DNA of 60,968 bases from Candidatus Aminicenantes bacterium. GTDB taxonomy: Bacteria > Acidobacteriota > Aminicenantia > Aminicenantales > Aminicenantaceae. How positions within the stretch are numbered: the stretch's first letter is position 1; every line of letters begins with the position of its first letter. Below are positions 780 through 47,181 of the stretch, one piece after another. The notes beneath the pieces are model-generated. The model was not told where the DNA came from, made no database searches, and was given only the letters and a program-made list of their open reading frames with translations. Both the position numbers and the translations under genes were made by a program. The DNA is taken from positions 1 through 60,968 of the forward strand of contig JAOUKO010000002.1 of assembly GCA_029882525.1 (NCBI GenBank). The letters are read 5' to 3'.

Positions 780-1319
780 ATGTTAAAAAAATTAAGAGGC
801 TTTACACTGATTGAGCTGCTGATCGTTGTCGCAATCATCGGTATTCTTGCAGCGCTCCTCATCCCCAACGCGATCACCGCCATCCAGAAAGCCAAGCAGA
901 AAACCGTCATGAAGGACATCATGACTATTGGCACAGCCCTTGCCGACTACGTGACTGACAACGGGACCACGCCCGTTCAGAGCGGCACTTATGATGCCAG
1001 TGCTGTCTTCTACGATGCTCTTTCCCCGTTCTATATCAAGGTTATGCCGATCAACGACCAGTGGGGCAATCCTTACAACGCCTACTGCGGTACTGATGTG
1101 GATGGAAACTACGGAATCACTGGAGCCGGTGGCGATGATTTTGTCGTTGCTTCCTGGGGAAGAGATAAGACTATTGAACCCTTTACTTTCGATGATTCCA
1201 ATCCTGAATCGGGTCTGTTCATAGTCAACCAGATGGCGCATTTTAACAATGACCTGGTCATGTGGAACGGCTCCTGGATCCGGGCTCCGAGGACCGCTGC
1301 AACCGGAACCGGTTCATAA
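780..1319 (+). CDS. GspG-like pseudopilin / prepilin-type N-terminal methylation domain protein
   Basis: AGGAGG at 768-773 sits 6 nt before the ATG. MLKKLRGFTLIELLIVVAIIGILAA is the prepilin cleavage/methylation motif. DQWGNPY and DFVVASWGRD resemble the GspG signature. Confidence 0.85.
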   Translation: MLKKLRGFTLIELLIVVAIIGILAALLIPNAITAIQKAKQKTVMKDIMTIGTALADYVTDNGTTPVQSGTYDASAVFYDALSPFYIKVMPINDQWGNPYNAYCGTDVDGNYGITGAGGDDFVVASWGRDKTIEPFTFDDSNPESGLFIVNQMAHFNNDLVMWNGSWIRAPRTAATGTGS

Positions 1320-1452: not shown

Positions 1453-2010
1453 ATGGAAAAGAGCCATAAGGGGTTCACGCTGATCGAACTGCTGATCGTG
1501 ATTGCTGTCATCGGTGTCCTGGCGGCGATACTCATCCCCAACGCTTTGTCCTCCATCCAGAAAGCCAAACAGAAGCAGACCATGAAGGATATCATAGGAA
1601 TCGCCACAGCCTGCGCGGATTACATCACCAGCACGGGGTACGCTCCTGACTCTGGAAATCAATCCGGCCCGATCAGTACGGCCAGCGATTTTATTACTGA
1701 GATCGCCCCGACTTTCATCAAAGCCTGTCCCGTTATTGATCAATGGGGACACGCTTTCCGGGCTTACACCGGGACCGCGGTGGCCAATGCCTACGGGATC
1801 CCGGCTGGCGGTCTGGGTACAGATGACTTCCTGATTGTCTCCTACGGTCGAGACGGAGCACTCGGCGGGACCATCTCTTTCACCTTCCAGGAGGACAATC
1901 CGACAGCAGGCATGTACAACGTGCGATCTATGGCGGATTTCAATAATGATATGGTCAACATGAACGGCACCTGGCTGCATGCTCCCCGGATCTCGGCGGA
2001 AGGGTCATAA
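1453..2010 (+). CDS. GspG-like pseudopilin, paralog of 780-1319
   Basis: AGGAGG at 1441-1446. MEKSHKGFTLIELLIVIAVIGVLAA, DQWGHAF and DFLIVSYGRDG. It is collinear with the upstream paralog, including the C-terminal NNDMVNMNGTWLHAPR tail. Confidence 0.85.
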   Translation: MEKSHKGFTLIELLIVIAVIGVLAAILIPNALSSIQKAKQKQTMKDIIGIATACADYITSTGYAPDSGNQSGPISTASDFITEIAPTFIKACPVIDQWGHAFRAYTGTAVANAYGIPAGGLGTDDFLIVSYGRDGALGGTISFTFQEDNPTAGMYNVRSMADFNNDMVNMNGTWLHAPRISAEGS

Positions 2011-2519: not shown

Positions 2520-3239
2520 ATGCGAACCATCGTCCTGTTTGCCTTTTGTGTTATCGCTGGTCTTCTCCTCATCCCGGTCATCATCATCTGTTTCCTGATC
2601 AGGTGGCCCTATCCTCTGTTTCCCCTGGGAAAAGGAGCGATACGCATCGGACAGAAGATCTTAGGTATGCGTCTGGATGTCTCCGGCCTGGAACACGTGG
2701 AAAAAAAGGCTTCTTATGTGTTCATGTCCAATCATCTGAGCGCCATAGACGGCCCTTTGCTTTTCATCCTCATTCCTCAGGCTATTAGGGTGATCCTGAA
2801 GAAAGAATCATTCAGGATCCCGGTAGTCGGTCAAAGCATGAGACTGGTGGGATTTGTTCCTGTGGACAGGAAGGGCATAAGAGGAGGGAAAAAGAGTATA
2901 GACCGGGCTGTTCGCATGATAAGGGAGAAAGGCCATTCCTTCCTGATATTTCCCGAAGGCACCAGGAGCAGGGACGGGAAGCTCCAGCCTTTCAAGCGGG
3001 GTGGATTCTTTCTGGCTCTGAACAGTCAGGTTCCTGTGGCACCGGTGAGTATCCAGGGGACCTTCGAACTCATGCCCAAGGGGGCTTTCTTCATCAGGAA
3101 GGGAAAGGTCAAGGTTCGCTTTCATCCGGCTGTCCCGGTTGGGGGATTTGACCGCGACAGCCTTCCGCAATTGATAGATAAGGTGCAAAAAGTTATCCGC
3201 TCAGGATTGGATGAAAGACAAAATGAGGAGGAAAGATGA
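2520..3239 (+). CDS. plsC: 1-acyl-sn-glycerol-3-phosphate acyltransferase
   Basis: NHLSAIDG (HX4D) and FPEGTRS motifs, with an N-terminal TM helix. Confidence 0.85.
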   Translation: MRTIVLFAFCVIAGLLLIPVIIICFLIRWPYPLFPLGKGAIRIGQKILGMRLDVSGLEHVEKKASYVFMSNHLSAIDGPLLFILIPQAIRVILKKESFRIPVVGQSMRLVGFVPVDRKGIRGGKKSIDRAVRMIREKGHSFLIFPEGTRSRDGKLQPFKRGGFFLALNSQVPVAPVSIQGTFELMPKGAFFIRKGKVKVRFHPAVPVGGFDRDSLPQLIDKVQKVIRSGLDERQNEEER

Positions 3240-3799
3240 GTTACCAGGATGTCATTTGCGAATGGAAGGAGACAGCAGAGGAATTTTTTAAGACCCGAGA
3301 ACATATTTTCAAGGAAGTCATTAGCCTCTCCATCGAGAGATTAAGGTCTGGAAATAAAATTCTTGTGTTTGGAAACGGCGGCAGCGCCGCTCAGGCACAG
3401 CATTTCGCCGCAGAGCTTGTCAATAGGTTTTTAAAAACAAGGCCTCCGCTTCGAGCCATAGCCCTATCCACGGATACCTCTGCCTTGACTTCCATAGCCA
3501 ATGACTCGTCCTTCGATCATGTCTTTTCCCGGCAGGTCGAGGCCCTCGGGAATCAGGGTGATGTGGCTTTGGGCCTTTCCACCAGCGGGAACTCCCCCAA
3601 CATGCTTGAAGCCATGAGGGCTGCCAGAGAGAGGGGCCTGATCACTGTGGCTCTGACAGGAAAAGGGGGCGGGAAGCTAGGTCCGCTCGTCGATTACTTG
3701 CTCGATGTCCCTTCGAAGAAGACCCCGAGAATTCAGGAAATTCATATCCTCCTCCTTCATCTTTTGGCTCAAGAGATTGAAGAGAAATCGGGATCGTGA
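3236..3799 (+). CDS. gmhA: D-sedoheptulose-7-phosphate isomerase (SIS domain)
   Basis: ILVFGNGGSAAQAQHFAAELV and STSGNSPN. ATGA overlap with plsC. Confidence 0.8.
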   Translation: MSYQDVICEWKETAEEFFKTREHIFKEVISLSIERLRSGNKILVFGNGGSAAQAQHFAAELVNRFLKTRPPLRAIALSTDTSALTSIANDSSFDHVFSRQVEALGNQGDVALGLSTSGNSPNMLEAMRAARERGLITVALTGKGGGKLGPLVDYLLDVPSKKTPRIQEIHILLLHLLAQEIEEKSGS

Positions 3800-3808
3800 C
3801 TTGCAGTT

Positions 3809-5638
3809 TTATTTCCGCCAGAACCTTTCTTTTCGGGGCCTGGATTTGAATTCCCAAAAGGCGGGAGCTTTTTCCTCAGCGGCTTGAGCCCCAGGGACAA
3901 AGATTTTTTCCTTCTCCCCGCTTTTATCGATCCGGAAAGAGCGCTCCGCTGCATACAGGATCTCTTGCCTCAGGCCCTCTGAAGCGATCTCCTCTGTAAA
4001 GCTGCGTCTTCCGTCCACCAGGTCCTTGATATAATACTGGATCTGTTCTTCGGAGTAGAAGTTCCGGATGTCGTATTCATCAAGGCTTTTTCCTTCGCAG
4101 ACCTTGATCTCCTTTGTTCCCAGGATATCTCTTTCATAATGGTTGGTTCCTCGAAGGTCACCTCTCTGGATCTGAGCCATGAGGCTGATGGGGACCCGGC
4201 TCACCTTGCGCACCAGCCTCTTCTTCTGCTGGCCGTTTACGTCGTAAGCTTCGATGATCTCACCCAGTCCACCGGTGTTGTACTGCATGAATTTGACTTT
4301 TCCCGGGAAATTGCTGACCAGAGTCATGATGATTTCATAAAAGCGGTTGACCTTTTTCGCCCTGGACCCGATGATGAACGGGTCGGTGCCGACGATGCGC
4401 ACCGATTCGCCGGCTTTGTCAGGTTGACTGGCGTAGCTGTGGGTGCTTTCTCCCCAGAGATAAGCCAGGACAGCCTGTTCGGGCGTTAACTCCTGGGCAA
4501 AGCTCATGATGGTATTCCTTCTGGTTATAAAGGCAAAGATGAGTCCGTCGAGCTCCTGAAGAGGCGGAAGGTTGATGGATTTGGAGGCGATCCCGACCAT
4601 CTTTCCTTTTATATTGGCTTGCAGCTTTCTGCGCTGGACAACGGCCCTTCCGTTGGCTGTCAGGCTTTCGTCCATGAAATCGACATCCCCGTTGGAGTTG
4701 ATCATCACATTTTCAAGGAGTGCGGATTTATCAATCAGCGCGTTGAACATCGCTTCTTGGTATTCTTTCTCAACGTCTGTCTTGACGAAGAAATTGTCTT
4801 CTGAGCCCAGCGCAGAACCGTCATTCTTCAAGAAGACGATGTCATCCTGGGTCACTTCGGTCTTTTCGCCTCTTCCATGATCCAGGCCGAGCTGATGGCA
4901 GGACCAGGTGGATTTTCCGGTCGCGCTCAGGCCGAAGAGGAACACCCCATAGGTTTTGAGCCTGTTGTCAGCATCCCTGACCGTCACCATCTTGGTCCCG
5001 GAGTGAAGGCCGAGCATGCCTTTTTCATCCGCTGTCCACATTGCCTGCCGGAGAAATCCCTTTTTATCTTCTCCCATGTAGTCGGTTCCCAGGGCGATAT
5101 TGATCTTTTCTTCGGGGATGACAAGGACCTGCTGCCTCAAGAGATGCTCTTCGGGGATGTGAATCATGATGAACTCGGGTCCCGGTCGCCTGCCTGGTTT
5201 GAACATGGTATTGCCCCACATGCAGCCCAGACGGTAGTTTGTCTGGTCGGCTTCGGATACATAGAGGTTGCAGACAGGATTATAGGTTTCGTTCTCCCCC
5301 ATCTGCCTGCGTATGCAGCAAAAAGGAAGGGTTCGCAGCAGATGGAGAACCTTGTCCAACTCTTCGGGGGCACTGGCGATCAGGTTTTTCTGAGCTTCTG
5401 TGGGGTGGGGAAGGCGGACTTTTTCACTTCCCAGGTAGACAGTTTTAGGGGCAATCCGGCTGGATATGGCCGAGCGCCAGCCGTAAGAGCCGTATTTTGT
5501 CCGCATTCCTGCAGCCTTGGCTCTGGGCTCGAGCCATTTGAGGCTGACGGTCTTGATGTTGGGTCCCTTTAATACTCTTTGAAGTTCTTCGCTAAATTTT
5601 TTATAGGCTGTTTCGTTAAAAATGCTTTGGTTATCCAT
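3809..5638 (-). CDS. Divergent ATP-type phosphoenolpyruvate carboxykinase-like protein
   Basis: Motifs are collinear with PckA: DYMGEDKKG (YAGEMKKG), LHSG (MHCS), FGLSATGKST (GLSGTGKTT P-loop), TQDDIVF (GDDEH), LENV, ANGRAV, QYNTGG (NTGWNG). I chose the start at MDNQS (ATG 5638) because the longer ORF to 5752 would overlap the upstream gene by 98 nt. Confidence 0.7.
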   Translation of the reverse strand: MDNQSIFNETAYKKFSEELQRVLKGPNIKTVSLKWLEPRAKAAGMRTKYGSYGWRSAISSRIAPKTVYLGSEKVRLPHPTEAQKNLIASAPEELDKVLHLLRTLPFCCIRRQMGENETYNPVCNLYVSEADQTNYRLGCMWGNTMFKPGRRPGPEFIMIHIPEEHLLRQQVLVIPEEKINIALGTDYMGEDKKGFLRQAMWTADEKGMLGLHSGTKMVTVRDADNRLKTYGVFLFGLSATGKSTWSCHQLGLDHGRGEKTEVTQDDIVFLKNDGSALGSEDNFFVKTDVEKEYQEAMFNALIDKSALLENVMINSNGDVDFMDESLTANGRAVVQRRKLQANIKGKMVGIASKSINLPPLQELDGLIFAFITRRNTIMSFAQELTPEQAVLAYLWGESTHSYASQPDKAGESVRIVGTDPFIIGSRAKKVNRFYEIIMTLVSNFPGKVKFMQYNTGGLGEIIEAYDVNGQQKKRLVRKVSRVPISLMAQIQRGDLRGTNHYERDILGTKEIKVCEGKSLDEYDIRNFYSEEQIQYYIKDLVDGRRSFTEEIASEGLRQEILYAAERSFRIDKSGEKEKIFVPGAQAAEEKAPAFWEFKSRPRKERFWRK

Positions 5639-5654
5639 GGCTGTGTTGTTGAAA

Positions 5655-8018
5655 TTACTCTTTTTTCTCTTCTGTCCCGGCTTCGCCGGTGATGATTTTC
5701 TTGATATCCTCCGCAGAGGCCACACCGCTGTTGAACAGATAGCATGACGCACTAGCCAGGAGCCGTTCGAAAAAGTGTCTTTCCAGCTCCAGCCTTTCCG
5801 GTGTTTTGAGCAGAAGATGCGGGTTGTAAAACGGATGAATCTTTGAGGGGCTCAGGTCGCGCTTGAGCCCGAGGCTTTCTCCGGATTCGAGCATCCGAAG
5901 GGCATCCTCGACTTCGATCTCAACACAGGGAGGCGAGGTTGTGTCATAGCGAAGGAGGAATATCCAGCGCACGACAGATCGCTTGGCATGCTTGGCCGGA
6001 CCGTCGATCCAGTAAGGGTCAAGGAGGGCATGGGCATCTTTGGAGGCCTTGTAGCAATAAGGAGAGCCCCGGTCAAGGCGGCACTCGTCGATATTCAAAC
6101 ATTCGGCATCCTGACAATCATCCTTGCGGGTGATGACATTCTCGCACTTGCTGTTGTCGAAGAGAGGAGCCAGTCGGGGGTAGGATTCCACCGTGTTCGT
6201 CGGCAGGAAAAGCTTTCTTTCCGCGGAATCCGCCAGTGCTCTTCCACCTGAAAACCGGATAAAAAGGATATCGTTGGAGTGGAGCCGGAACCGTTCGTCC
6301 TGGAGCAGCGAGAAAAAAAGCTCTGTTTTTTTTGTCCCTTTGGGTCCCATCAGGACCACGCCATTACCGTCGATATCTGCGGACATTCCCCGGAGAGTGA
6401 AGACGTTGAAAAGCCTTTCTGAGACGTCAATGGTCAAACCCAGGGCCAGGCTGCGCAGGGAAGTGTAGTTGTCCGTGTTGATGAGGAAGCCCGTGTTCGT
6501 CTCCGAGTTATAAAAAGAGTGCGGCTCCCTGCCTGGAATGCCGTCAACAGCGTAGATGATGCCGTGAGGTTCCAGGTCGGCTTCCAGCTGAGCCGGGTAC
6601 CAGTTTTCGACCCAGAAATCATTGAGATGGGAGACGTTGGTGCGAAGCTGAACAATGACACCGTTGATGTTGGCATTCCACTCGAAATAATTTTCGTAGC
6701 TGAGATGACTTTCCATCTCAGCGACCATTACCTCTTTCATCTTGACGGAAATGGCGGGGTCCACGGGTACGGATTTCTTTTCTCTGGTTAGAGTGTTGTT
6801 GAGAGCGATATACTTCACTTTTTTGGCTGTTTTGAGCTGCCTGAGCGCTTCGATGATCCTGTCCATGCCCTTTTCCAGGTTTTCCATGGAGGTGGTGTAG
6901 GAGATCCGAATGTAGTCATCGGTTCCGAAGGCATCTCCCGGCACGATAGCCACCTTCGCTTCTTTCAACAGATAATAGGCCATCCCGTAAGAGTTTCGGA
7001 TCTGGACATTATTGAATTCCTTATCATAATAGGAGGAGAAATTGGGGAATAGATAGAATGCTCCCAGGGGCTTGAAACAGGATATTTTGGGGATGGTCTG
7101 GAGCCTCATCAGGGCGTAGTTCCGTCGTCTCTGCAGCTCCGATCTCATCTTGGAGACTTCATGCTGGGGGCCGGCCAGGGCTTCCAGGCTTGCCATCTGG
7201 GAGATCGAGCAGGCGTTGGAGGTGGTGTGGCTCTGAACCCTGCCCATGGCCCCGATGATCTCTCCAGGTCCGGCCGCGTAGCCGATTCTCCATCCGGTCA
7301 TGGAGTAAGCCTTGGAAACTCCGTTGATGATGATGGTCTTCTTTTTGACGTCCTCCCCTAAGGAGGCAAAGCTCACAAATTTGAAGTCATCGTAGACGAA
7401 TTTATCGTAGATTTCATCAGCCACAACAAAGATATCCTCATCCAGGATGATGTCAGCGATGGCTTCAAGCTCATGCCTTTTGTAGGCGGCTCCTGTGGGA
7501 TTGGAGGGGTTGTTGAGGATGATAGCCTTGGTGGCCGGTGAGATGGCAGCCTTGAGCTGGTCAGGGGTGAGGATGAACCCGTTCTCCTCCTTGGTGGGGA
7601 TGATGATGGCTTTTCCCTCGGCCAGGGAAACTGAGTGAGGATAGGTCACCCAGTACGGAGCCGGGATGATGACCTCATCGCCCCCATCGATCAACGCCTG
7701 GAAAAGATGGTAAAGGGAGCTCTTTGCTCCCGGGGAAACGATGACTTCCTCTTTGGTGTAGGAAAGACCGAAGTCTTCTTTCAGTCTGTTGATGATGGCC
7801 TGCTTGAGAGCCGGGATTCCTTCGTTGGGCGTGTATTTGGTTATGTTATCTTTGATGGCCTTGATGCCTGCCTCTTTCACGTTGTCCGGAGTGAAAAAAT
7901 CTGGCTCCCCGATGCTGAGGTCCACGATGTCAATCCCCTCATCCTTCATAGACTTGGCTTTGGCGGAGATCTTGAGGGTTGGGGATGCGCCGATTTGACT
8001 CGCTTTATCTGAGATCAT
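5655..8018 (-). CDS. Class I/II PLP aminotransferase (aspartate aminotransferase-like) fused to a ~390-aa C-terminal P-loop kinase-like domain
   Basis: N-terminal ~395 aa: IGEPDF, NPSNPTG and SKAYSMTGWRIGY (PLP lysine). The C-terminal part carries LMGPKGTKKTE (P-loop, nt 6323-6346) followed by HSNDILF, an arrangement like HprK/PEPCK-fold kinases. It is one uninterrupted 787-codon ORF. Confidence 0.7.
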   Translation of the reverse strand: MISDKASQIGASPTLKISAKAKSMKDEGIDIVDLSIGEPDFFTPDNVKEAGIKAIKDNITKYTPNEGIPALKQAIINRLKEDFGLSYTKEEVIVSPGAKSSLYHLFQALIDGGDEVIIPAPYWVTYPHSVSLAEGKAIIIPTKEENGFILTPDQLKAAISPATKAIILNNPSNPTGAAYKRHELEAIADIILDEDIFVVADEIYDKFVYDDFKFVSFASLGEDVKKKTIIINGVSKAYSMTGWRIGYAAGPGEIIGAMGRVQSHTTSNACSISQMASLEALAGPQHEVSKMRSELQRRRNYALMRLQTIPKISCFKPLGAFYLFPNFSSYYDKEFNNVQIRNSYGMAYYLLKEAKVAIVPGDAFGTDDYIRISYTTSMENLEKGMDRIIEALRQLKTAKKVKYIALNNTLTREKKSVPVDPAISVKMKEVMVAEMESHLSYENYFEWNANINGVIVQLRTNVSHLNDFWVENWYPAQLEADLEPHGIIYAVDGIPGREPHSFYNSETNTGFLINTDNYTSLRSLALGLTIDVSERLFNVFTLRGMSADIDGNGVVLMGPKGTKKTELFFSLLQDERFRLHSNDILFIRFSGGRALADSAERKLFLPTNTVESYPRLAPLFDNSKCENVITRKDDCQDAECLNIDECRLDRGSPYCYKASKDAHALLDPYWIDGPAKHAKRSVVRWIFLLRYDTTSPPCVEIEVEDALRMLESGESLGLKRDLSPSKIHPFYNPHLLLKTPERLELERHFFERLLASASCYLFNSGVASAEDIKKIITGEAGTEEKKE

Positions 8019-8042: not shown

Positions 8043-9452
8043 TTATTCTTCTTCTTTCTTTTCAGGAGTGAGTTTGTCTTTGAGGTATTTTTTCAGGTCA
8101 ACGCCGGTCAGGGACTTCACAACTTCGGGCATCTGAGCCAGGACTTCGGCGACCTGGGAAGTCAGCTTTGATGTGCCCAACCCTTTGTCGCCGCTGACTA
8201 TCACGATCTTGTCCACCTTGGAGAGGGGTTCGGATACAGACTTTGCCAGTTCAGGGAGGATTTTCATGTAGGATTCGAAGAGGGCGGCATCGTTGTATCT
8301 CTCCCAGGCCTGAGCCTTTTTGAGCATGGATTCAGCCTCTGCTGTGCCCATCTGTTTGAGCTTTTCCGCTTCAGCCACACCTTCGAGCTTGGTGGCCTCT
8401 GCCTTGCCTTTGGCTTCGGTCAGGATGCGGTATTCTTCTGCTTCGGCTTCGGCTTTGAGCTGGTACTTCCTTGCATCGGCGGGCTTGATCACACTGGACT
8501 CCAACTCTTTTTGTCTGCGGGCGATTTCCAGCTCTTCGATTTTTATCGCTTCTCCTTTTTCGATGAGCATGGCCTTGGCTTCTTCCTTATTGAGCTCCTG
8601 GCTGATGCGGAAACGTTCCAGCTCGTAGGAGAGGTCGGATTGGGCTTTTTTCTGGTTGACCAGGACCTGGGATTCGGCTTTTTTGGCTTCGTTTTCCCAT
8701 TGGGCCTTGGCGATAAGGGCCTCGGCAGCCAGGCGGGCCACTTCTCCCTCCTTCCGTGCCTGGGAGGATTTGATTATGGCTTCCTTATCCGTCTCGGCTT
8801 CGGCGATGGCAGCGTCGCGTTTGGCTGCCGCGATCTCGGGCTTCCCCAGGGCATCAAGATAACCCTGGGTGTCGCTGATGTCCTTCAGAGCAAAGGACAT
8901 CATGGTCAGTCCCATCTTGGCAAAATCCTTTCGGGTAGCCTCTGTAACCTTGTCTGAAAACTCATGTCTTCCTCTGTAGATCTGCTCAACTGTCATGGCG
9001 CCCATGACCTCTCTCGTCTTCCCTTCGAGGATGGTCATGGAGACGTCTCTGATGCCTTCTTTGCCCATACCTAAGAACTGCTCGGCTGCGAGACGAATGG
9101 AACGGTCTGAAGAGTCGATCTTGACCTGGGCAGTGGCCTCAGCCATGATCGGGACTCCTCCGTGAGTGAGGACCTCAGGAGTCTTGATGTTCAGAGTGAT
9201 GACCTCCATGGGCAGGATGTTAACAGCCTCAAGGAAGGGGATGACAAATGTGCCGCCACCGAGGCGATAACGGTAGCCGACCTTTCTTTTGGTGCCATCC
9301 GGTTCGATAACGGCTCTTTTCCGTCCTCCCGAAATGATAAGGACTTCGTTGGGGCCGACTTTGCGATACTGTTTAGCGATAAGGATTGAGATAAGGATTA
9401 TAACGATGAGTATGATGCCTATTATGATAAGGGTTGGTATGATATCCATCAT
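8043..9452 (-). CDS. Flotillin-family SPFH domain protein
   Basis: N-terminal TM helix, a band-7/SPFH core, then a long Ala/Glu-rich coiled coil (AEAEAEEYR..AEATKLEGVAEAE) typical of flotillins. Confidence 0.8.
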   Translation of the reverse strand: MMDIIPTLIIIGIILIVIILISILIAKQYRKVGPNEVLIISGGRKRAVIEPDGTKRKVGYRYRLGGGTFVIPFLEAVNILPMEVITLNIKTPEVLTHGGVPIMAEATAQVKIDSSDRSIRLAAEQFLGMGKEGIRDVSMTILEGKTREVMGAMTVEQIYRGRHEFSDKVTEATRKDFAKMGLTMMSFALKDISDTQGYLDALGKPEIAAAKRDAAIAEAETDKEAIIKSSQARKEGEVARLAAEALIAKAQWENEAKKAESQVLVNQKKAQSDLSYELERFRISQELNKEEAKAMLIEKGEAIKIEELEIARRQKELESSVIKPADARKYQLKAEAEAEEYRILTEAKGKAEATKLEGVAEAEKLKQMGTAEAESMLKKAQAWERYNDAALFESYMKILPELAKSVSEPLSKVDKIVIVSGDKGLGTSKLTSQVAEVLAQMPEVVKSLTGVDLKKYLKDKLTPEKKEEE

Positions 9453-9553: not shown

Positions 9554-9582
9554 ATGTTATTGCGATAAAGGGATGTTGTCAA
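9554..9582 (-). promoter_or_regulatory. Sigma-70-like promoter for the flotillin gene
   Basis: The minus strand reads TTGACA-17 nt-TAACAT, about 100 nt upstream of the ATG at 9452. Confidence 0.35.
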
Positions 9583-19268: not shown

Positions 19269-20885
19269 TCAGAGAGAGACTGTTTCCTGAAAGGCTCCAT
19301 AGATATCCTTGAGGAGGGAGGAAATCTCGCCCAGAGTCGCCCTGGCTTTTACGGCCTCGATAATGGGAGGGACAAGGTTTTCTTCGGATTCAACGGCTTT
19401 TTTTAATGCCTCCAGCCGGATTTTGACCTGTTTGTCTGACCGCTTTGCCTTAAGGGAAAGGAGCTTCTTGACCTGAGTTTTCTCGATTTTTTCAGGTGGA
19501 GAATAGAGGCTGAAGCGGATTTGCTCTTCTTTGTTCCGGAATTCGTTCAGTCCAACGATGATCTCTTCTTTGCTTTCCACCTGCTTTTGATACCTGTAGG
19601 CGCTTTCCTGAATCTCTTTCTGGATGAATCCTTTTTCAATGGCGGTGAGCATTCCTCCCAGCTCTTCGATTTTTCTGAGGTATTCCTGGACTTTTTTTTC
19701 GATCTGGTTGGTCAGGCTCTCAATGTAAAAAGAGCCTCCCATCGGGTCGACAGTATCAGCCACGCCGCTTTCGTAGGCGATGATCTGTTGAGTCCTGAGA
19801 GCTATTTGGGCTGATTCCTCGCTCGGAAGCGCAAGTGCCTCATCTCTGGAATTGGTGTGGAGGGACTGAGTGCCGCCCAAGACTGCAGCCAGAGCTTGAA
19901 GCGCGACCCGGACCACATTGTTGTCAGGCTGCTGGGCAAGAAGAGTCACTCCACTTGTCTGAGTATGGAACCTTAATTTCCAGGCGAGGGGATTTTTTGC
20001 CTTGAATTTCTCTTTCATCAGTCTAGCCCACAAACGTCTTGCCGCTCTGAATTTCGCGATTTCTTCGAAGAAGTTGTTGTGGCAGGCAAGGAAAAAGGAA
20101 AGGCGGGGGGCGAAGGTGTCTACATCGAGTCCTGACTTCATGGCGGCCTCGACATAGGTCAGCGCATTGGCCAGGGTAAAAGCGAGCTCCTGGACAGCGG
20201 TGGCGCCTGCTTCCCTGATGTGGTAGCCGCTGATACTCATCGTGTTCCAGTTGGGAACGTTTTTATGGCAGAAGGCAAGGATGTCTGTGATGATCTTCAA
20301 AGATGCCTGAGGAGGATAGATGTACGTTCCCCGGGCAATGTATTCTTTAAGGACATCGTTCTGGATGGTGCCGGAGAGTTTGGTCCATTTGATTCCTTTT
20401 TTTTCAGCCAGGACGAGGTACATGGCCAGAATAATGGCGGCTGTGGAGTTGATGGTCATGGAGACGCTGATCCTGTCCAGCGGAATATCCCTGAAAAGGG
20501 TTTCCATATCCTCGAGGGAGTCGATGGCCACACCGACCTTTCCCACCTCCCCTTGGGAGAGAGGATGGTCTGAGTCCAGGCCCAGTTGAGTGGGCAGGTC
20601 AAAGGCAACGCTTATCCCCGTCTGACCTTGAGAGAGGAGAAAGCGGTATCTCTTGTTGGATTCTTCAGCTGTGCCGAAGCCAGCATACTGGCGCATGGTC
20701 CACAGCTTTCCCCTGTACATGGTGGGGTAGACGCCCCTTGTAAACGGATATTCTCCGGGCTGGCCCAGCTCTTGAGAGGTATCGAAGCCGGAAAACTCTT
20801 TTTCCGTGTAAACGCGCTTGATATCTATCCGGGATGATGTACAAAATTTCTGTTTTCGCTTTTTGTCTATGGTCATGGTCTGCAA
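19269..20885 (-). CDS. Methylmalonyl-CoA mutase family, catalytic (N-terminal) subunit without a B12-binding domain
   Basis: [35 protein letters not shown] and [10 protein letters not shown]. At 538 aa it ends before the cobalamin-binding domain. Confidence 0.85.
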
Positions 20886-20984: not shown

Positions 20985-22334
<1,350 letters not shown>

Positions 22335-42874: not shown

Positions 42875-44371
42875 ATGAATATGGTTATGAAGCAACGGTT
42901 AGACCAGAGACAGGTTCAAAAGTTAATCCTTGCTCCTGCGCTTCAGCAGGCCATAAAGCTCCTTCCACTGACCAATCTGGAGCTTATTGAGATAATCGAT
43001 ACCGAGCTCTCCCAGAATCCTATGCTGGAGTTTGAGGAGGAAACCCTCGAAAAGAAACCTGAGGAGGGACCTGAAGAGAAAGAGAAAGACAGGACTGAGG
43101 ATGATGAGAGAGCGAGTGAGATGACTAAAGAGGATTTAAATCCTGAAGATAGCCCGGAGCCTCAGGCAGAGGCCGAAGCCACTGAATTTGAATCCTATTT
43201 TCAACAATATTTTGATGACGGCTTCCATTCATATCCTCAGGAAATAAAAGAAGCGCCTTCCTTGGAGAATGTGGTTGCTGAAAGCTCTTCTCTCTGGGAC
43301 CATCTCAGCTGGCAGGCGAATTTAACCTTTTTTGACAAAACGGATAAAGAGATTGCTCAGTATATCATCGGTAACATAAATGAAGAGGGTTATCTGACGA
43401 CATCAGTTGAGGAAATCGCCAATACGTTTGAGACTACTGAAAAGAAGGTGGAAGAGATCCGGGAGAAGATCAAAGGCTTTGATCCCATAAGCGTGGGAAG
43501 CTTGACTCTTCAGGAAGCACTTTTAAGCCAGATGGACCATTTTCAGGTCAGGGATGAAATCACGCGGACCATTGTCACGGAACATCTTCATCTTCTTGAA
43601 AAATCAGATTATTCCCAGCTCGCCAAGGTGCTCGGGATTCCCCTCTCAGCCGTGAAGTACCATATGGAATTTATCAAGCACCTGGACCCTGCTCCGGGGA
43701 GGAAATACACTCAGGAGAGGACTTTCTATGTTGTCCCTGACATAATCGTCACCAAAGAGGACGATGAGCTGAGAATCATGCTGAACAACGAGGGCCTTCC
43801 TCGACTGAGAATCAACGCTTATTACAAAAGGCTTCTGGCCAAAGCTTCGAAAGATAATCCGGATGCTTACCGCTTCTTGAAGGATAAGATGAAAAAAGCC
43901 TTCTGGTTTTTACGCAGCCTTGACCAGAGGGACCAGACGATTTACAAAGTGGCCAAGTACATCGTGGATAAGCAAAAGGATTTTATCGAGAGGGGGATCG
44001 AATTCATCAAACCATTGACTTTGATCGAACTCGCTCAGGAGATAGGGGTTCATGAGTCCACTGTAGGTCGAGTGGTGGCTAATAAATATATGATGACACC
44101 TCGAGGGGTGTTTTCCCTGAAATATTTTTTTCATAAATCTCTCACCGGAGATTACGGCGAGGAAATTTCCTCTCTGAGAATAAAAGAGAGGATCAGAAAG
44201 GTCGTTGACAGCGAAGATAAGGAGCAGCCGTTAAGCGACCTAGAGATCGGCGATATTTTAGAAAGGGAAAACCTGAGGGTGGCCCGAAGAACCGTGACCA
44301 AATACAGAAAACAGCTTGAGATTCCGCCCTCTCACATAAGAAAGAGAAGGTTTAAAATGGAGGAAGCCTGA
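42875..44371 (+). CDS. rpoN: RNA polymerase sigma-54 factor
   Basis: MKQRLDQRQVQKLILAPALQQAIKLL, an acidic region II, and the C-terminal RpoN box ARRTVTKYR. Confidence 0.95.
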   Translation: MNMVMKQRLDQRQVQKLILAPALQQAIKLLPLTNLELIEIIDTELSQNPMLEFEEETLEKKPEEGPEEKEKDRTEDDERASEMTKEDLNPEDSPEPQAEAEATEFESYFQQYFDDGFHSYPQEIKEAPSLENVVAESSSLWDHLSWQANLTFFDKTDKEIAQYIIGNINEEGYLTTSVEEIANTFETTEKKVEEIREKIKGFDPISVGSLTLQEALLSQMDHFQVRDEITRTIVTEHLHLLEKSDYSQLAKVLGIPLSAVKYHMEFIKHLDPAPGRKYTQERTFYVVPDIIVTKEDDELRIMLNNEGLPRLRINAYYKRLLAKASKDNPDAYRFLKDKMKKAFWFLRSLDQRDQTIYKVAKYIVDKQKDFIERGIEFIKPLTLIELAQEIGVHESTVGRVVANKYMMTPRGVFSLKYFFHKSLTGDYGEEISSLRIKERIRKVVDSEDKEQPLSDLEIGDILERENLRVARRTVTKYRKQLEIPPSHIRKRRFKMEEA

Positions 44372-44917: not shown

Positions 44918-45391
44918 ATGAAACTGTATAACTTGATTACGCAGGATATGGTTATTGAAGAGTTGGAGTCTGGTAACAGAGAAGGTGTTCTGAAAGAAAT
45001 GGTCAGTTTCTTGAAGAAGAGGAAGAAAATCGCAAGAGAAAAGGAGCTTTATGCAAAGCTGCTCCAGAGAGAAGAATTGGGAAGTACAGCCATTGGCGAA
45101 GGAGTGGCCATTCCGCACTGTAAAATAAAGGGAATCAAGAATCCTCTTGTTATGCTGGCTGTATCGAAGAAAAGCGTGGATTTTCAATCTTTAGATGGGA
45201 AGCCTTCGAATATATTCTTCCTGGTTGTGTCCTCGCCCGAGAACCCGAGCCTGAACCTTCAGATCCTGGCTGCAATAGCACATCTGGTAAGGAAATCAGG
45301 TCCTCTTCTCAAGAGAATTCTTGGAGCCAGGAATGCGGGTGATATCTTGGATATAATCCGAGAGGAAGAAGAGAAAATAAGTGAAAAGTGA
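44918..45391 (+). CDS. ptsN: PTS IIA-Ntr (nitrogen regulatory EIIA)
   Basis: GSTAIGEGVAIPHCK active-site His region. Located downstream of hpf. Confidence 0.85.
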   Translation: MKLYNLITQDMVIEELESGNREGVLKEMVSFLKKRKKIAREKELYAKLLQREELGSTAIGEGVAIPHCKIKGIKNPLVMLAVSKKSVDFQSLDGKPSNIFFLVVSSPENPSLNLQILAAIAHLVRKSGPLLKRILGARNAGDILDIIREEEEKISEK

Positions 45392-46304
45392 GAAAAATTC
45401 TCTGCTCGATGTCAAAGAATTTTTCCAGAGAAAAAAGGATTCTCTCAGGCTTAAGCCTGCTTCAGGAAGAGTGGGGTTCGCCAGAAAGCTGGCTCGGTCT
45501 TCTTTAAATATAGCCCAGTTGCCCATCCAGATATGGGGAAAGAAAGAGTTCAATGATATGGCAGACCTCTCTCCTGTCGAGAGGAAGAAACAGCTCAGGA
45601 AGAAACTGAGGGAGGATACGTTTTGTGTGATCCTTGCTGGGGGAGTCCGTTTTTTTCCTGAGGTCTTGGAGGAAGCCAGGCAGAGCGGCCTGGCGCTTTT
45701 TCTCTCTGAGCTTCCTTCAAGAAAGTGTCGCGAATCAGTAAAAGAATTCATTTCCAGTATTTCTCCAGACGTGGTCAAGATTTCTGCGGGATTGCTCCGA
45801 ATTCTGAGCCTTGGGGTTCTCATCAGAGGAGACAGCGGGATCGGAAAGAGCGAGAGCGTCCTTGAGCTTATCTCCAGAGGACACCGATTTGTCTGTGATG
45901 ATGTGGTCCAGGTTAAGAAAGATGAAAACGGCAAATTGATAGGAACAGCCCCTCGGCTGAGCCGTAATTTCATGGAGATAAGGGGATTGGGGATCATCAA
46001 CATTAAAGAGATTTTCGGGATCAGGTCAGTGCTGAAGCAATCCGGTATCGATTTAGTGATCAAGTTAAGGCGGTTAAAGAAGATACAGCAGGATAAAGAG
46101 CAAGACCGGCTTGGCCTTAAATTCCCTGAAGATTATGTGATTTTGGGGATAAAAGTCCCTCAGATCACTATTCCGGTGGCGCCAGGAAGGAACATCGCCA
46201 CCCTGATTGAGGTCGCCTGCAAGGTGCAGATGTTGCGGGGAAAGGGTTACCATGCACCTCAGGATATTGTCAGAAGACTGAATCGTGTCCTCTCGCTTCA
46301 ATAA
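45381..46304 (+). CDS. hprK: HPr kinase/phosphorylase
   Basis: GDSGIGKSESVLELISRGHRFVCDDVV and MEIRGLGIINI. Confidence 0.9.
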   Translation: MKSEKNSLLDVKEFFQRKKDSLRLKPASGRVGFARKLARSSLNIAQLPIQIWGKKEFNDMADLSPVERKKQLRKKLREDTFCVILAGGVRFFPEVLEEARQSGLALFLSELPSRKCRESVKEFISSISPDVVKISAGLLRILSLGVLIRGDSGIGKSESVLELISRGHRFVCDDVVQVKKDENGKLIGTAPRLSRNFMEIRGLGIINIKEIFGIRSVLKQSGIDLVIKLRRLKKIQQDKEQDRLGLKFPEDYVILGIKVPQITIPVAPGRNIATLIEVACKVQMLRGKGYHAPQDIVRRLNRVLSLQ

Positions 46305-46323
46305 ACCGGATAGGGGAAGGATT

Positions 46324-47181
46324 ATGAAGAGCGAAAGATTCCTCGTCATCACGGGATTATCCGGCTCGGGCAAGACCGTGGTCAGTCGGTTCCTTGAGGA
46401 CTTAGGCTATTACTGTATAGACAATCTCCCAGCCAAGCTTATTCCCAGCTTTGTTGACCTTTGGAGAAGAAAAGAAGTGGAGATAGAAAAAGTCGCTCTT
46501 GTTATTGATATCCGGGAAGCAGGGTTTGAGACCGAGTTCCTGGAGGTTTTCCATAAGATCAGGGAAAAAGTATCGCCCCAATTGATTTTTCTCGATGCAT
46601 CGGATGATACTCTGCTCAAGAGGTTCAGTGAGAGCAGGCGGCCTCATCCTCTAAAAACCAGAAAGTCCATTGTGGAGAGCATCCAGCTAGAGAGAAAGAG
46701 GCTGGCTGAAGTGAAAAGATTAGCGGATGAGGTCATAGACACCACGGATACCAATATTACTCAGCTCAAGGAACGTTTGAATGTGAGGTTTCTCAAAAAG
46801 AAAGTGGATAAGATGCAGGTCAGGATGGTCAGCTTTGGCTACAAATACGGGGTGCCTCTGGAATCGGACCTGCTGTTTGATACACGATTTTTACCCAATC
46901 CATTTTATGTGGACAAGCTGAGGGATAAGACCGGTAAGGATAAAAGCGTTAAGGATCACGTCCTGCAGGATGAGGAGACAGAAAAGTTTCTCCTCCGATT
47001 GAAAAGCTTTGTTGATTATCTGATGCCCAAATTCGTCAAAGAAGGAAAAAGCCTGCTCACGATTTCCACAGGATGCACGGGCGGGAAACATCGTTCGGTC
47101 ATCATTGCTGAGGAGCTGAAGGAGCACTTGAGGAGTCAGGGCTACTCGGTGAGAGTCTACCACCGCGACCTTTATAAATAG
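46324..47181 (+). CDS. rapZ: RNase adapter protein RapZ (YhbJ)
   Basis: LVITGLSGSGKTVV, CIDNLP and CTGGKHRSV. The ATG at 46324 is preceded by GGGGAAGG. Confidence 0.9.
   Translation: MKSERFLVITGLSGSGKTVVSRFLEDLGYYCIDNLPAKLIPSFVDLWRRKEVEIEKVALVIDIREAGFETEFLEVFHKIREKVSPQLIFLDASDDTLLKRFSESRRPHPLKTRKSIVESIQLERKRLAEVKRLADEVIDTTDTNITQLKERLNVRFLKKKVDKMQVRMVSFGYKYGVPLESDLLFDTRFLPNPFYVDKLRDKTGKDKSVKDHVLQDEETEKFLLRLKSFVDYLMPKFVKEGKSLLTISTGCTGGKHRSVIIAEELKEHLRSQGYSVRVYHRDLYK

Follow-up and report, generated by a model that had tools for sequence, protein, structure and literature searches.

What does the C-terminal half of a protein do when the N-terminal half is an aspartate aminotransferase (AspAT) and the next gene encodes a PEPCK-like protein? 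The window analyzed here, 60,968 nucleotides of a Candidatus Aminicenantes bacterium contig, raises this question on its minus strand (Table 1). A first-pass annotation had described a 787-aa ORF joining a PLP aminotransferase to a ~390-aa C-terminal domain (CTD), followed after 16 nt by a 609-aa PEPCK-like gene, and had proposed a module leading from aspartate through oxaloacetate to PEP. We give an even chance to a reading, drawn from sequence comparisons, in which the CTD is a pseudo-PEPCK partner domain holding AspAT and PEPCK together where oxaloacetate is exchanged.

Table 1. Minus-strand features of the AspAT-CTD locus, in window coordinates
Feature	Position (nt)	Strand	Basis
Promoter-like site TTGACA-17-TAACAT, upstream of flotillin gene	9554..9582	-	Consensus scan, 10/12 matches, weak
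Flotillin gene, 469 aa	8043..9452	-	Pfam Band_7 1.2e-27 + Flot 1.6e-07
AspAT-CTD fusion ORF, 787 aa	5655..8018	-	ORF list
Class Ib PLP aspartate aminotransferase domain, aa 1-395	6834..8018	-	Pfam PF00155 1.5e-77
PLP lysine K236 of aminotransferase domain	7311-7313	-	
CTD, aa 400-787, modeled truncated PEPCK-fold domain, degenerate catalytic residues	5658..6821	-	AlphaFold2, Foldseek, hhalign
Best-conserved CTD block, aa 439-499, YFEWNANINGVIVQLRTNVSHLNDFWVENWYPAQLEADLEPHGIIYAV	6522..6704	-	Conservation across 81 sequences
NTDNYTSLRSLALG, aa 514-527	6438..6479	-	hhalign column map
TLRGMS, aa 541-546	6381..6398	-	Profile alignment to HprK
Altered P-loop GPKGTKKTE, aa 558-566	6321..6347	-	Motif position
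HSNDILF, aa 580-586	6261..6281	-	Alignment to PEPCK
Cys-rich insert, aa 625-655, five Cys	6054..6146	-	Alignment
16-nt spacer, fusion stop codon to PEPCK-like start codon	5639..5654	-	Sequence
Divergent ATP-PEPCK-like gene, 609 aa	3809..5638	-	Pfam PEPCK_ATP, NCBIfam NF006821

The fusion protein and its operon

By sequence, the aminotransferase domain is an ordinary class Ib aspartate aminotransferase and is probably active. It matches Pfam Aminotran_1_2 over aa 30-388, and its top NCBIfam models are aspartate transaminases. The closest solved relatives, all matched over their full length (E 1e-91 to 2e-101), are the class Ib enzymes AspAT 1J32 from Phormidium lapideum (2e-101), 6F35/6F77 from Sinorhizobium, the prephenate/aspartate aminotransferase 5WMH from Arabidopsis and 1BJW from Thermus thermophilus. 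Like these, the domain has the PLP-lysine motif SKAYSMTGWR (aa 235-244), the GAK lysine (K99) and NPSNPTG. It differs from 1J32 by a 9-residue insertion near aa 328-340, and from every one of these structures by the ~390-aa C-terminal extension. The aminotransferase and CTD share a single unbroken ORF of 778-791 aa in 74 of 75 independent assemblies of Aminicenantes whose N-terminus is complete, which shows that the fusion is genuine and not an assembly error.

The flotillin, fusion and PEPCK-like genes are co-oriented, in that order, and probably form one three-gene operon. A gap of 24 nt separates the flotillin gene from the fusion, whose stop codon TAA (5655-5657) stands 16 nt from the ATG (5638) of the PEPCK-like gene, a spacer read directly in the sequence; a terminator scan of this spacer found no terminator-like site on the minus strand. 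The site upstream of the flotillin gene is a possible operon promoter. Translational coupling of the fusion to PEPCK, as earlier suggested, is not conserved, the intergenic gap varying from -9 to 248 nt among Aminicenantes loci. The flotillin gene, unmentioned in the first-pass annotation, encodes a protein with an N-terminal membrane segment.

By its alignments, the 609-aa product is a motif-complete, though divergent, ATP-type PEPCK, and it looks active. It matches Pfam PEPCK_ATP above the gathering score (6.8e-26) and NF006821 over aa 19-560 (5.2e-88), in the latter case with 295.9 bits, below the 369-bit cut-off. Alignment to 1YTM and 1AQ2 places R61, Y187, K192, K193, H212, S238, K242, S243, D265, D266 and R331 opposite E. 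coli R65, Y207, K212, K213, H232, S250, K254, T255, D268, D269 and R333, the R61/R65 pairing being made by eye only. The PEPCK catalytic residues are invariant throughout the family (alignment A2). All catalytic motifs are therefore kept, as had been noted; the protein is nonetheless divergent, its sequence similarity to solved PEPCKs being confined to aa ~175-332. An alternative GTG start at 5752 would give 647 aa, and homologs have 609-619 aa.

Fold and residues of the C-terminal domain

The CTD (~385 aa) has a truncated ATP-PEPCK fold. A Pfam search of aa ~400-787 gave no match. When an AlphaFold2 model of the domain (pLDDT 90.9, pTM 0.89) was compared with the PDB using Foldseek, the top 35 matches were all ATP-PEPCKs (E ~1e-17; query-normalized TM 0.65-0.74), which rules out a P-loop mimic alone. 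The domain shares core fold and motif order with PckA (PF01293; 1AQ2, 1OEN, 2PC9, 1YTM), but identity is only 13-19%. hhalign pairs CTD residues 103-369 (alignment A1) with residues 172-459 of the 609-aa family (E 2e-5), and stand-alone relatives of the CTD match NF006821, also the best model for the 609-aa neighbor. By these alignments the domain is a shortened paralog of the neighboring PEPCK's clade, with the core fold kept, the last ~150 residues (the adenine-binding region) missing and the N-terminal part also shortened. The earlier assignment to the HprK/PEPCK fold can thus be narrowed to a truncated PEPCK-fold paralog.

HprK and related kinases (PF07475; HprK_rel_A, TIGR04352; HprK_rel_B, TIGR04355; ScmC, TIGR04249/PF27840) share the P-loop/Asp superfold with the CTD and resemble a minimal PEPCK core in size. 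Similarity of the P-loop region to HprK profiles is weak (hpr-ser E 0.0023; PDB HprK E 0.025), all CTD scores fall far short of what the families require (17 bits, cut-off 240), and ScmC and Hpr_kinase_C matches of the stand-alone relatives are weak or faint. Unlike HprK, the CTD has Arg for the conserved His and an altered Walker A, and the structure search ranks PEPCKs first. A true HprK is encoded elsewhere in the window (45381..46304; Hpr_kinase_C 2.8e-53).

Within Aminicenantes, the residues that stand in for the lost catalytic ones hardly vary. NTDNYTSLRSLALG is the counterpart of PEPCK GTxYxGExKK, with N517 for Y207, R522 for K212 (80 of 81 Aminicenantes sequences) and S523 for K213 (79/81). 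R543 of TLRGMS, found in 81/81, replaces the Mn2+-ligand His232 and lies under the LHG His in the profile alignment to HprK; stand-alone relatives retain IHSIHG. HSNDILF corresponds to PEPCK GDDE, with D268 mostly but not universally changed to Asn (N582 in 78/81) and D269 retained as D583 (80/81). Two of three Mn2+ ligands are thus lost (K213 and H232) and the third is kept; Y207, D268 and R333 are gone as well, the last position being variable. This bears out the annotated absence of the Lys-Lys pair and His ligand. The P-loop, located as annotated ahead of HSNDILF, departs from Walker A (GxxxxGK[ST]) by a Lys for the second Gly and retains K564 and T565; within Aminicenantes its pattern is G-P-K/P-G-T-K/R/N/Q-K-T/S. 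Because metal ligands, other catalytic residues and the ~150-residue adenine-binding part have been lost, the CTD is predicted to be unable to catalyze the PEPCK reaction.

Genomic association of the domain with PEPCK

Of 76 evaluable Aminicenantes loci, 62 have a PEPCK gene downstream of the fusion; the other 14 have none in the following 2 kb or more, and the Zixibacteria locus (L085) also lacks one. In Aminicenantes, much of this synteny may reflect simple inheritance. PEPCK adjoins or is near the fusion in three lineages beyond Aminicenantes, lying on the downstream side in both L086 and Calditrichota L087 (PCK 63% identical), and divergent, upstream of the flotillin-fusion pair, in L092 (56% identical).

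The association extends to direct joining of the degenerate domain with PEPCK. The two form one 899-aa polypeptide present on three contigs (P0256) and are likewise fused in P0383; the stop codon of the domain overlaps the PEPCK start in L094, and in Jordarchaeaceae L095 the domain is frameshifted yet continuous with the PEPCK frame. These PEPCK partners (archaeal, other contigs) belong to the same clade as the 609-aa protein. A structure model of a natural domain-PEPCK fusion was of low confidence (pLDDT 40). Relatives that keep the catalytic motifs (P0118, P0247, P0391, P0430) stand alone, with no PEPCK or aminotransferase in their flanks (3-8 kb read; less on one short contig). A neighbor-joining tree grouped aminotransferase-linked and PEPCK-linked forms apart from stand-alone ones in just 39 of 100 bootstraps. 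For the proposed module, the fusions and overlaps strengthen the functional link, but the gene pair is not obligatory. The CTD is equally conserved where the PEPCK neighbor is missing, so there it would either cooperate with a PEPCK from another locus or act independently of PEPCK.

Models for the function of the fusion

In the model that we favor, the CTD would be a pseudoenzyme partner subunit that binds PEPCK, as inactive paralogs do in other enzyme pairs, and the AspAT on its N-terminus would place an oxaloacetate-forming or -consuming transaminase (Asp + 2-oxoglutarate <-> oxaloacetate + Glu) beside PEPCK (oxaloacetate + ATP <-> PEP + CO2 + ADP). The ligand-replacing arginines and basic P-loop could bind an anion such as oxaloacetate, PEP, phosphate or nucleotide. 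The gene arrangements suggest, short of proof, that enzymes which make and use oxaloacetate are physically linked; binding of the CTD to PEPCK, channeling and the direction of flux are inferred. Enzymes paired with inactive paralogs include the trypanosomatid AdoMetDC with its prozyme, HisZ-HisG and the alpha/beta subunits of plant PPi-phosphofructokinase. Like the inactive members of those pairs, the CTD is a catalytically degenerate paralog that selection has retained and that is genetically linked to an active paralog; unlike them, it also carries an unrelated second enzyme, AspAT, and its complex is a putative one. We found no published description of an AspAT-pseudo-PEPCK fusion.

An active CTD with a new substrate, either a kinase regulating AspAT or PEPCK or a metal-independent oxaloacetate/PEP enzyme using arginines for Mn2+, is unlikely. 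K564, T565, D583, R522, R543 and R601-K602 are invariant or near-invariant in Aminicenantes, and canonical Walker A motifs (GxxGxGK[ST]) occur in L076 (GPPGTGKTE), P0242 and P0384, so that the CTD may bind ligands or even catalyze. The stand-alone relatives, which resemble active kinases, and the weak HprK similarity near the P-loop also speak for this reading. Set against this, the PEPCK/HprK His is Arg in all complete aminotransferase- or PEPCK-linked forms, and neither the adenine-binding part nor a fixed R333 position remains. P-loops of other lineages range from GGPGSGKTG to loops whose Lys or entire motif is gone: GPKGMKRGS (Zixibacteria), GSSENDIAT (P0256), GETGRGVST (P0385) and HAPNVKKER (P0241). 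Loss of the P-loop lysine in several lineages makes it improbable that the CTD acts generally as the regulatory kinase earlier envisaged.

A rather doubtful alternative makes the CTD an allosteric sensor that tunes AspAT in response to oxaloacetate, PEP or nucleotide, independently of PEPCK, with adjacency reflecting shared regulation or inherited synteny. The unchanged conservation in the 14 PEPCK-less Aminicenantes loci and Zixibacteria would fit, as would pocket residues swapped for conserved basic ones, not decayed; but the domain is fused to or overlaps PEPCK where an aminotransferase is neither attached nor nearby, and Zixibacteria keeps the CTD although its aminotransferase part is reduced to aa 258-395 and lacks the PLP lysine.

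It is quite improbable that flotillin is the main partner, with the fusion as cargo of flotillin microdomains (for example, coupling amino-acid/dicarboxylate uptake to transamination) and PEPCK a secondary passenger. In 73/73 evaluable Aminicenantes loci, as well as in L086, L087, L092 and L093, a flotillin gene directly precedes the fusion at a distance of about 18-30 nt, and this link is more constant than that to PEPCK. Yet flotillin was not called near the domain in Zixibacteria or in PEPCK-linked L088 and L095 (the upstream flank of L094 is too short to judge), the adjacency is possibly inherited, no mechanism is known that connects flotillin to soluble AspAT/PEPCK enzymes, and we found no literature support. 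Any role for flotillin alongside AspAT-CTD and PEPCK would be hypothetical.

That the CTD is a functionless relic of gene duplication and fusion, as the loss of most catalytic residues might suggest, is strongly disfavored, with hardly any chance of being correct, by the intact ORFs, by relatives in 485 species genomes and by sequence constraint. Mean identity to the window sequence is 71% for the CTD, close to the 75% of the aminotransferase and 77% of PCK, and is indicative of constraint. The block at aa 439-499 (conservation 0.90-0.93 in 20-aa blocks, over 81 sequences) is near-identical across phyla in fused forms, with 89% identity even in PCK-less loci, and is a candidate interaction or ligand surface. 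Bacterial fused forms have the Cys-rich insert, the Zixibacteria form has a reduced version of it, and the archaeal PEPCK-fused form has none; just two of its five Cys are near-invariant in alignment A1.

Architecture and spread of the aminotransferase fusion

The open reading frame, its two domains and their motifs, the 16-nt gap after its stop codon and the PEPCK-like neighbour are all present in the sequence as the first-pass annotation described them. The N-terminal aminotransferase (AAT) domain matches Pfam PF00155 (Aminotran_1_2) over fusion residues 30–388, corresponding to profile positions 2–361 of 361 (E 1.5e-77; 261.7 bits against a gathering threshold of 19.7), and carries the PLP lysine, K236, within SKAYSMTGWR. 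Its nearest solved relatives, with which it aligns end to end, are the class Ib aspartate aminotransferases (AspATs) 1J32 (2e-101), 6F35, 6F77, 5WMH and 1BJW (4e-91). The best NCBIfam models are also aspartate transaminases, the top one, NF004769, scoring 426.8 bits, below its cut-off of 617. By these alignments the domain is an AspAT-like enzyme of ordinary class Ib type, outside the NF004769 equivalog. Class Ib aminotransferases can also accept prephenate, 5WMH being such a relative. Relative to 1J32 the domain has a nine-residue insertion, SSYYDKEFNNVQIRNS, and a similar sequence occurs in fused homologues of other phyla.

With one genome scanned per species, 485 genomes proved to encode a relative of the C-terminal domain (CTD); the locus counts given here refer to the best 80 loci of that scan, nearly all labelled Aminicenantes or unclassified. 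Of the 75 loci whose N terminus is complete, 74 carry AAT and CTD in one uninterrupted reading frame of 778–791 amino acids. The same fusion is found in a Calditrichota genome (locus L087) and on three contigs of unplaced lineages (L086; L092, encoding protein P0242; and L093, encoding P0241), which are 57–61% identical to the window in the AAT and 42–54% in the CTD. The assembly or frameshift artefact against which the first-pass annotation had cautioned is therefore excluded. In the Zixibacteria chromosome CP070796.1 (L085), only the final ∼138 residues of the AAT (aa 258–395) are left, without the PLP lysine, and these are joined to a full CTD. The Calditrichota contig holds two fusion copies in opposite orientation. 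The first breaks off mid-CTD at a point where the contig changes strand, and the arrangement may reflect a chimeric assembly, an inversion or a genuine duplication. Many database entries are labelled “partial”; selenocysteine or a stop codon was rejected as the cause, since they are fragments at contig ends or products of frameshifts in assemblies prone to error.

The arrangement is thus widespread in Aminicenantes, which are abundant uncultured sediment bacteria. The database name of the fusion is only “pyridoxal phosphate-dependent aminotransferase,” so it has been missed by metabolic reconstructions of the group. Literature searches gave no description of the fusion, of a pseudo-PEPCK domain or family, or of the operon, in keeping with the initial impression that the fusion was undescribed.

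The neighbouring gene encodes what looks from its sequence like a working, though divergent, ATP-type PEPCK. Pfam PF01293 (PEPCK_ATP) matches it at 91.4 bits (gathering threshold 26.5), aligned over residues 96–355 only. NCBIfam NF006821, a PEPCK subfamily, aligns over residues 19–560 (model positions 12–517 of 525) at 295.9 bits, below its cut-off of 369, which marks the protein as a divergent sister of that subfamily. Alignment to the solved PEPCKs 1YTM and 1AQ2 matched every catalytic residue compared, the pair R61/R65 having been matched by eye, and so bears out the earlier view of a divergent protein with its catalytic motifs kept. All of these residues but S238 are invariant in the family alignment; the window has Ser at this position, where the consensus, followed by most members, is Thr (GLTATGKST). 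A homologue search with the protein recovered close Aminicenantes relatives only, at ≥77% identity.

The first-pass annotation picked out the fusion and PEPCK pair and missed the gene on its other side, which encodes a flotillin and ends 24 nt before the fusion. Flotillin lies immediately upstream of the fusion at L086, L087, L092 and L093 and at every one of the 73 Aminicenantes loci whose upstream sequence is long enough to judge. No flotillin was called at the Zixibacteria locus, nor at L088 and L095, where the CTD is linked to PEPCK; the upstream flank of L094 is too short to tell. No terminator-like site was found between the flotillin, fusion and PEPCK genes on the (-) strand, so they likely form one transcription unit, closed by a convergent SIS-domain gene. 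Elsewhere in the window, methylmalonyl-CoA mutase and enolase genes lie adjacent to each other ∼11 kb from the flotillin side of the operon; enolase supplies or consumes PEP. Two further adjacent genes encode a type IV pilin/T2SS pseudopilin N-terminal methylation motif.

Coordinates of the features discussed, in the window unless a locus is named
Feature	Coordinates	Strand	Remarks
Pilin/pseudopilin-motif gene	780-1319	(+)	
Pilin/pseudopilin-motif gene	1453-2010	(+)	
SIS gene	3236..3799	convergent	
PEPCK-like gene	3809..5638	(-)	609 aa; ATG at 5638
Fusion ORF	5655..8018	(-)	787 aa; TAA stop at 5655-5657
Cys-rich insert of CTD	6054-6146		fusion aa 625-655
AAT insertion	~7000-7035		fusion aa ~328-340
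Flotillin gene	8043..9452	(-)	Band_7 + Flot
Methylmalonyl-CoA mutase, large subunit	19269-20885	(-)	
Enolase	20985-22280	(-)	
rpoN	42875-44371		
HprK	45381-46304	(+)	Hpr_kinase_C 2.8e-53 + Hpr_kinase_N
rapZ-like	46285-47181		
ptsI-like	48043-49809		
Fusion, L085	8003-9577		Zixibacteria, CP070796.1
NDK, L085	9587-10015		
NDK, L086	11149-11562		
NDK, L087	8527-8940		
Fusion copy, L087	2593-4422		ends mid-CTD
Fusion copy, L087	10985-12422		opposite orientation to the other copy

Fold and active site of the C-terminal domain

The CTD (aa ∼400–787) has no Pfam match at E≤10, and single-sequence and profile searches of the PDB gave only marginal P-loop matches, to ABC ATPases and HprK, so its fold had to come from structure prediction. 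An AlphaFold2 model built with 39 homologues (pLDDT 90.9, pTM 0.89) was compared with the PDB by Foldseek, as had been suggested for the proposed HprK/PEPCK fold. The first 35 matches are all ATP-PEPCKs (E ∼1e-17; domain-normalised TM 0.65–0.74; 13–19% identity), followed by GTP-PEPCKs at ∼1e-12. Profile–profile alignment with the family of the 609-aa protein (hhalign, E 2e-5) pairs CTD residues 103–369 with PEPCK residues 172–459. More conservative stand-alone relatives of the CTD match NF006821 (7e-9 to 3.5e-18), while the window CTD matches no PEPCK model. The CTD is therefore a shortened PEPCK-fold paralogue, nearest to the clade of its neighbour. Its N-terminal part is reduced, and its end aligns at about residue 459 of 609, such that the last ∼150 PEPCK residues, which contain the adenine-binding region, are missing. 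In the model the domain has the PEPCK core fold; in its sequence it falls outside PEPCK by every family-level and active-site test.

It also falls outside HprK/P, with no Pfam Hpr_kinase_C match, 17.2 bits against the 240 of TIGR00679, a P-loop that departs from GxSGxGKS, and an Arg at the conserved His; other sequence profiles showed no more than a faint resemblance to HprK near the P-loop. No match was found between the window CTD and the ScmC or HprK-related kinase A and B models (TIGR04249, TIGR04352, TIGR04355), for which the stand-alone relatives score 12–32 bits against cut-offs of 125–200. PF27840 (“ScmC”) was rejected as the CTD family, being weak or faint on distant relatives and lacking the SynChlorMet-cassette context; no radical SAM/SPASM or PqqD genes of RiPP-type cassettes flank the fusion. 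A genuine HprK is encoded in the window, in a cluster with rpoN (sigma-54), rapZ-like and PTS enzyme I genes, so the organism's true HprK and the PEPCK-fold CTD are different proteins.

Active-site residues of the CTD were mapped through the 609-aa protein, by way of its alignment with solved PEPCKs and the hhalign map.

Catalytic positions of PEPCK and their counterparts
E. coli PEPCK	609-aa protein	CTD (fusion numbering)	Aminicenantes CTDs with the CTD residue
R65	R61		
Y207	Y187	N517	
K212	K192	R522	80/81
K213	K193	S523	79/81
H232	H212	R543	81/81
S250	S238		
G253		K563	
K254	K242	K564 (kept)	81/81
T255	S243	T565 (kept)	
D268	D265	N582	78/81
D269	D266	D583 (kept)	80/81
R333	R331	H663	varies: H, Y, F, V

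The Lys-Lys pair and the His reported missing in the first-pass annotation are indeed replaced. With K213 and H232 substituted, D269 is the only one of the three Mn2+ ligands that is kept. The window P-loop, GPKGTKKTE (aa 558–566), departs from the canonical kinase-1a motif GxxGxGK[ST] and is followed by HSNDILF at aa 580–586. The same P-loop is typical of Aminicenantes and Calditrichota; other forms are GPKGAKKSN (L086), GPKGMKRGS (Zixibacteria), HAPNVKKER (P0241) and GSSENDIAT (the archaeal protein P0256). Canonical motifs occur in P0242 (GGPGSGKTG) and at L076, an Aminicenantes locus without a PEPCK neighbour (GPPGTGKTE, a Walker A). Unlike L076, other Aminicenantes have K, R, N or Q at the second P-loop glycine, a position that is thus evolutionarily labile. 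A defined nucleotide site is not a common feature of CTDs linked to PEPCK or AAT. What these share is Arg in place of the His and S, Q or N in place of K213, in most cases along with a K212-to-Arg change; the exception is P0255, a truncated AAT-linked representative, which still has the His.

Mean identity to the window is 71% for the CTD, 75% for the AAT and 77% for PEPCK, and the CTD block at aa 439–499 exceeds 90% conservation and hardly differs from one phylum to another. This pattern indicates that the domain is not decaying, and the idea that it is a functionless relic is effectively excluded by its conservation. A Cys-rich insert (C-x10-C-x4-C-x5-C-x9-C), possibly a site for metal or a disulfide, is conserved among the majority of fused forms in bacteria; the Zixibacteria version contains fewer Cys residues, and the archaeal fusion to PEPCK lacks the insert.

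Linkage of the degenerate domain to PEPCK

The expectation that the gene pair would be conserved held in part. Among the best 80 loci, PEPCK follows the fusion at 62 Aminicenantes loci; it is absent from 14 at which 2 kb or more could be read downstream, and there the convergent SIS-domain gene comes directly next; four are too short to judge. The intergenic spacer in Aminicenantes spans -9 to 248 nt, so the translational coupling proposed from the window is not conserved. Outside Aminicenantes, PEPCK (63% identity) follows the fusion at L086 and L087 and is itself followed by a nucleoside diphosphate kinase (NDK) gene. At L092, PEPCK (56% identity) is divergent and upstream of the flotillin–fusion pair. 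The Zixibacteria chromosome has no PEPCK or flotillin nearby, and NDK follows the fusion. No NDK gene was found in the 61-kb window. NDK adjacency could bear on the nucleotide used by the neighbour's PEPCK clade.

The strongest evidence for the linkage came when 1.84 billion representative proteins were searched by profile, which showed the CTD family to be small (391 clusters at E≤1e-3) and revealed further arrangements. P0256, of 899 amino acids, joins a 330-residue N-terminal CTD of the degenerate type (LRS, LRG, GSSENDIAT, SND) to a full NF006821 PEPCK (416 bits, above cut-off), 40% identical to the window PEPCK, and is intact on three contigs with archaeal-looking neighbours. P0383 is a CTD–PEPCK fusion ending at a contig edge. 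For P0384 (L094), the CTD stop codon overlaps the start of the PEPCK gene, and at a Jordarchaeaceae locus (L095) the CTD is frameshifted and continues into the reading frame of PEPCK. No PEPCK or aminotransferase was found in the flanks read of four stand-alone relatives that retain catalytic motifs (P0118, P0247, P0391 and P0430), the contig of P0247 being only 3.2 kb long. Only the degenerate form is therefore repeatedly tied to PEPCK, in four gene arrangements.

Proposed function and alternatives

Considered together, these data are best explained if the CTD acts as a pseudo-PEPCK: a paralogue without activity, retained as a partner of the PEPCK clade from which it came and, in several bacterial phyla, fused to an aspartate aminotransferase. 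Such a fusion would bring together two enzymes of oxaloacetate, the AspAT that forms or uses it and the PEPCK that converts it to PEP and back. Binding of an anionic ligand by the CTD may persist through its conserved arginines and basic P-loop. The analysis establishes what the domains are, the fold, the lost residues, the existence of the fusion and the gene associations; the shared operon, the physical contact, any channelling, the direction of flux and the part played by flotillin are inferences. A more elaborate proposal, which we consider rather unlikely, is that pseudo-PEPCK and PEPCK form a specific heteromer that, with the dimeric AspAT, makes a genetically hard-wired complex channelling oxaloacetate (Asp <-> OAA <-> PEP), possibly at flotillin membrane domains. 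If so, the CTD family, present in bacteria and Asgard-type archaea, would be the first pseudoenzyme subunit described as dedicated to a PEPCK.

Several results weigh against a model in which the CTD binds PEPCK and tethers the AspAT to it. The Aminicenantes P-loop region retains Lys, Thr and Asp, and the foremost alternative is that the CTD is catalytically active, as an enzyme or kinase of new chemistry; set beside this are the lost metal ligands and the missing C-terminal PEPCK residues. Some loci keep the CTD with no neighbouring PEPCK, a distribution compatible with a second alternative, a PEPCK-independent allosteric sensor of AspAT; the Zixibacteria form, with its truncated aminotransferase, is a difficulty for the tethering model, and the archaeal CTDs fused directly to PEPCK sit poorly with a sensor of AspAT. 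A third alternative is a module centred on flotillin, which accompanies the fusion at all 73 evaluable Aminicenantes loci and was not called at two PEPCK-linked loci. The tethering model has two further weaknesses: a single origin of the AAT-linked and PEPCK-linked degenerate domains received 39 of 100 bootstraps in a neighbour-joining tree, and a model of the natural fusion P0256, made from a shallow alignment for the packing of its halves, reached pLDDT 40 and pTM 0.36, too low to be informative.

The pseudo-PEPCK reading matters because of the intermediate concerned. Oxaloacetate, an unstable compound, is where amino-acid metabolism, the TCA cycle and gluconeogenesis branch, and its direct transfer between enzymes has long been proposed and is hard to prove. 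Here an oxaloacetate-producing transaminase is tied to a PEPCK-derived domain that is itself repeatedly fused to or beside PEPCK. This multi-enzyme fusion, with its putative pseudoenzyme partner, is assembled from known folds. It offers a concrete, testable candidate for a natural oxaloacetate-channelling complex and the first candidate for an inactive-paralogue subunit of PEPCK.

The searches also brought out a small family that has yet to be characterised. Its proteins, mainly archaeal and ∼380 aa long, are “mini-PEPCK/HprK-like” and have intact kinase motifs. Its stand-alone members (P0118, P0119, P0244, P0247–P0249, P0253, P0262, P0266, P0278, P0281, P0294, P0391 and P0430; loci L081–L084, L091 and L096–L099) are mostly ∼360–460 residues long, with longer relatives to ∼560, and many come from Bathyarchaeia or Methanosarcinales-like archaea. 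Neither PEPCK nor an aminotransferase neighbours them in the flanks read. They have a “mini-PEPCK” fold and carry the kinase-type motifs NTxYYGQxKS, IHSIHG, APTGTGK[ST]T, DDW and NSRA.
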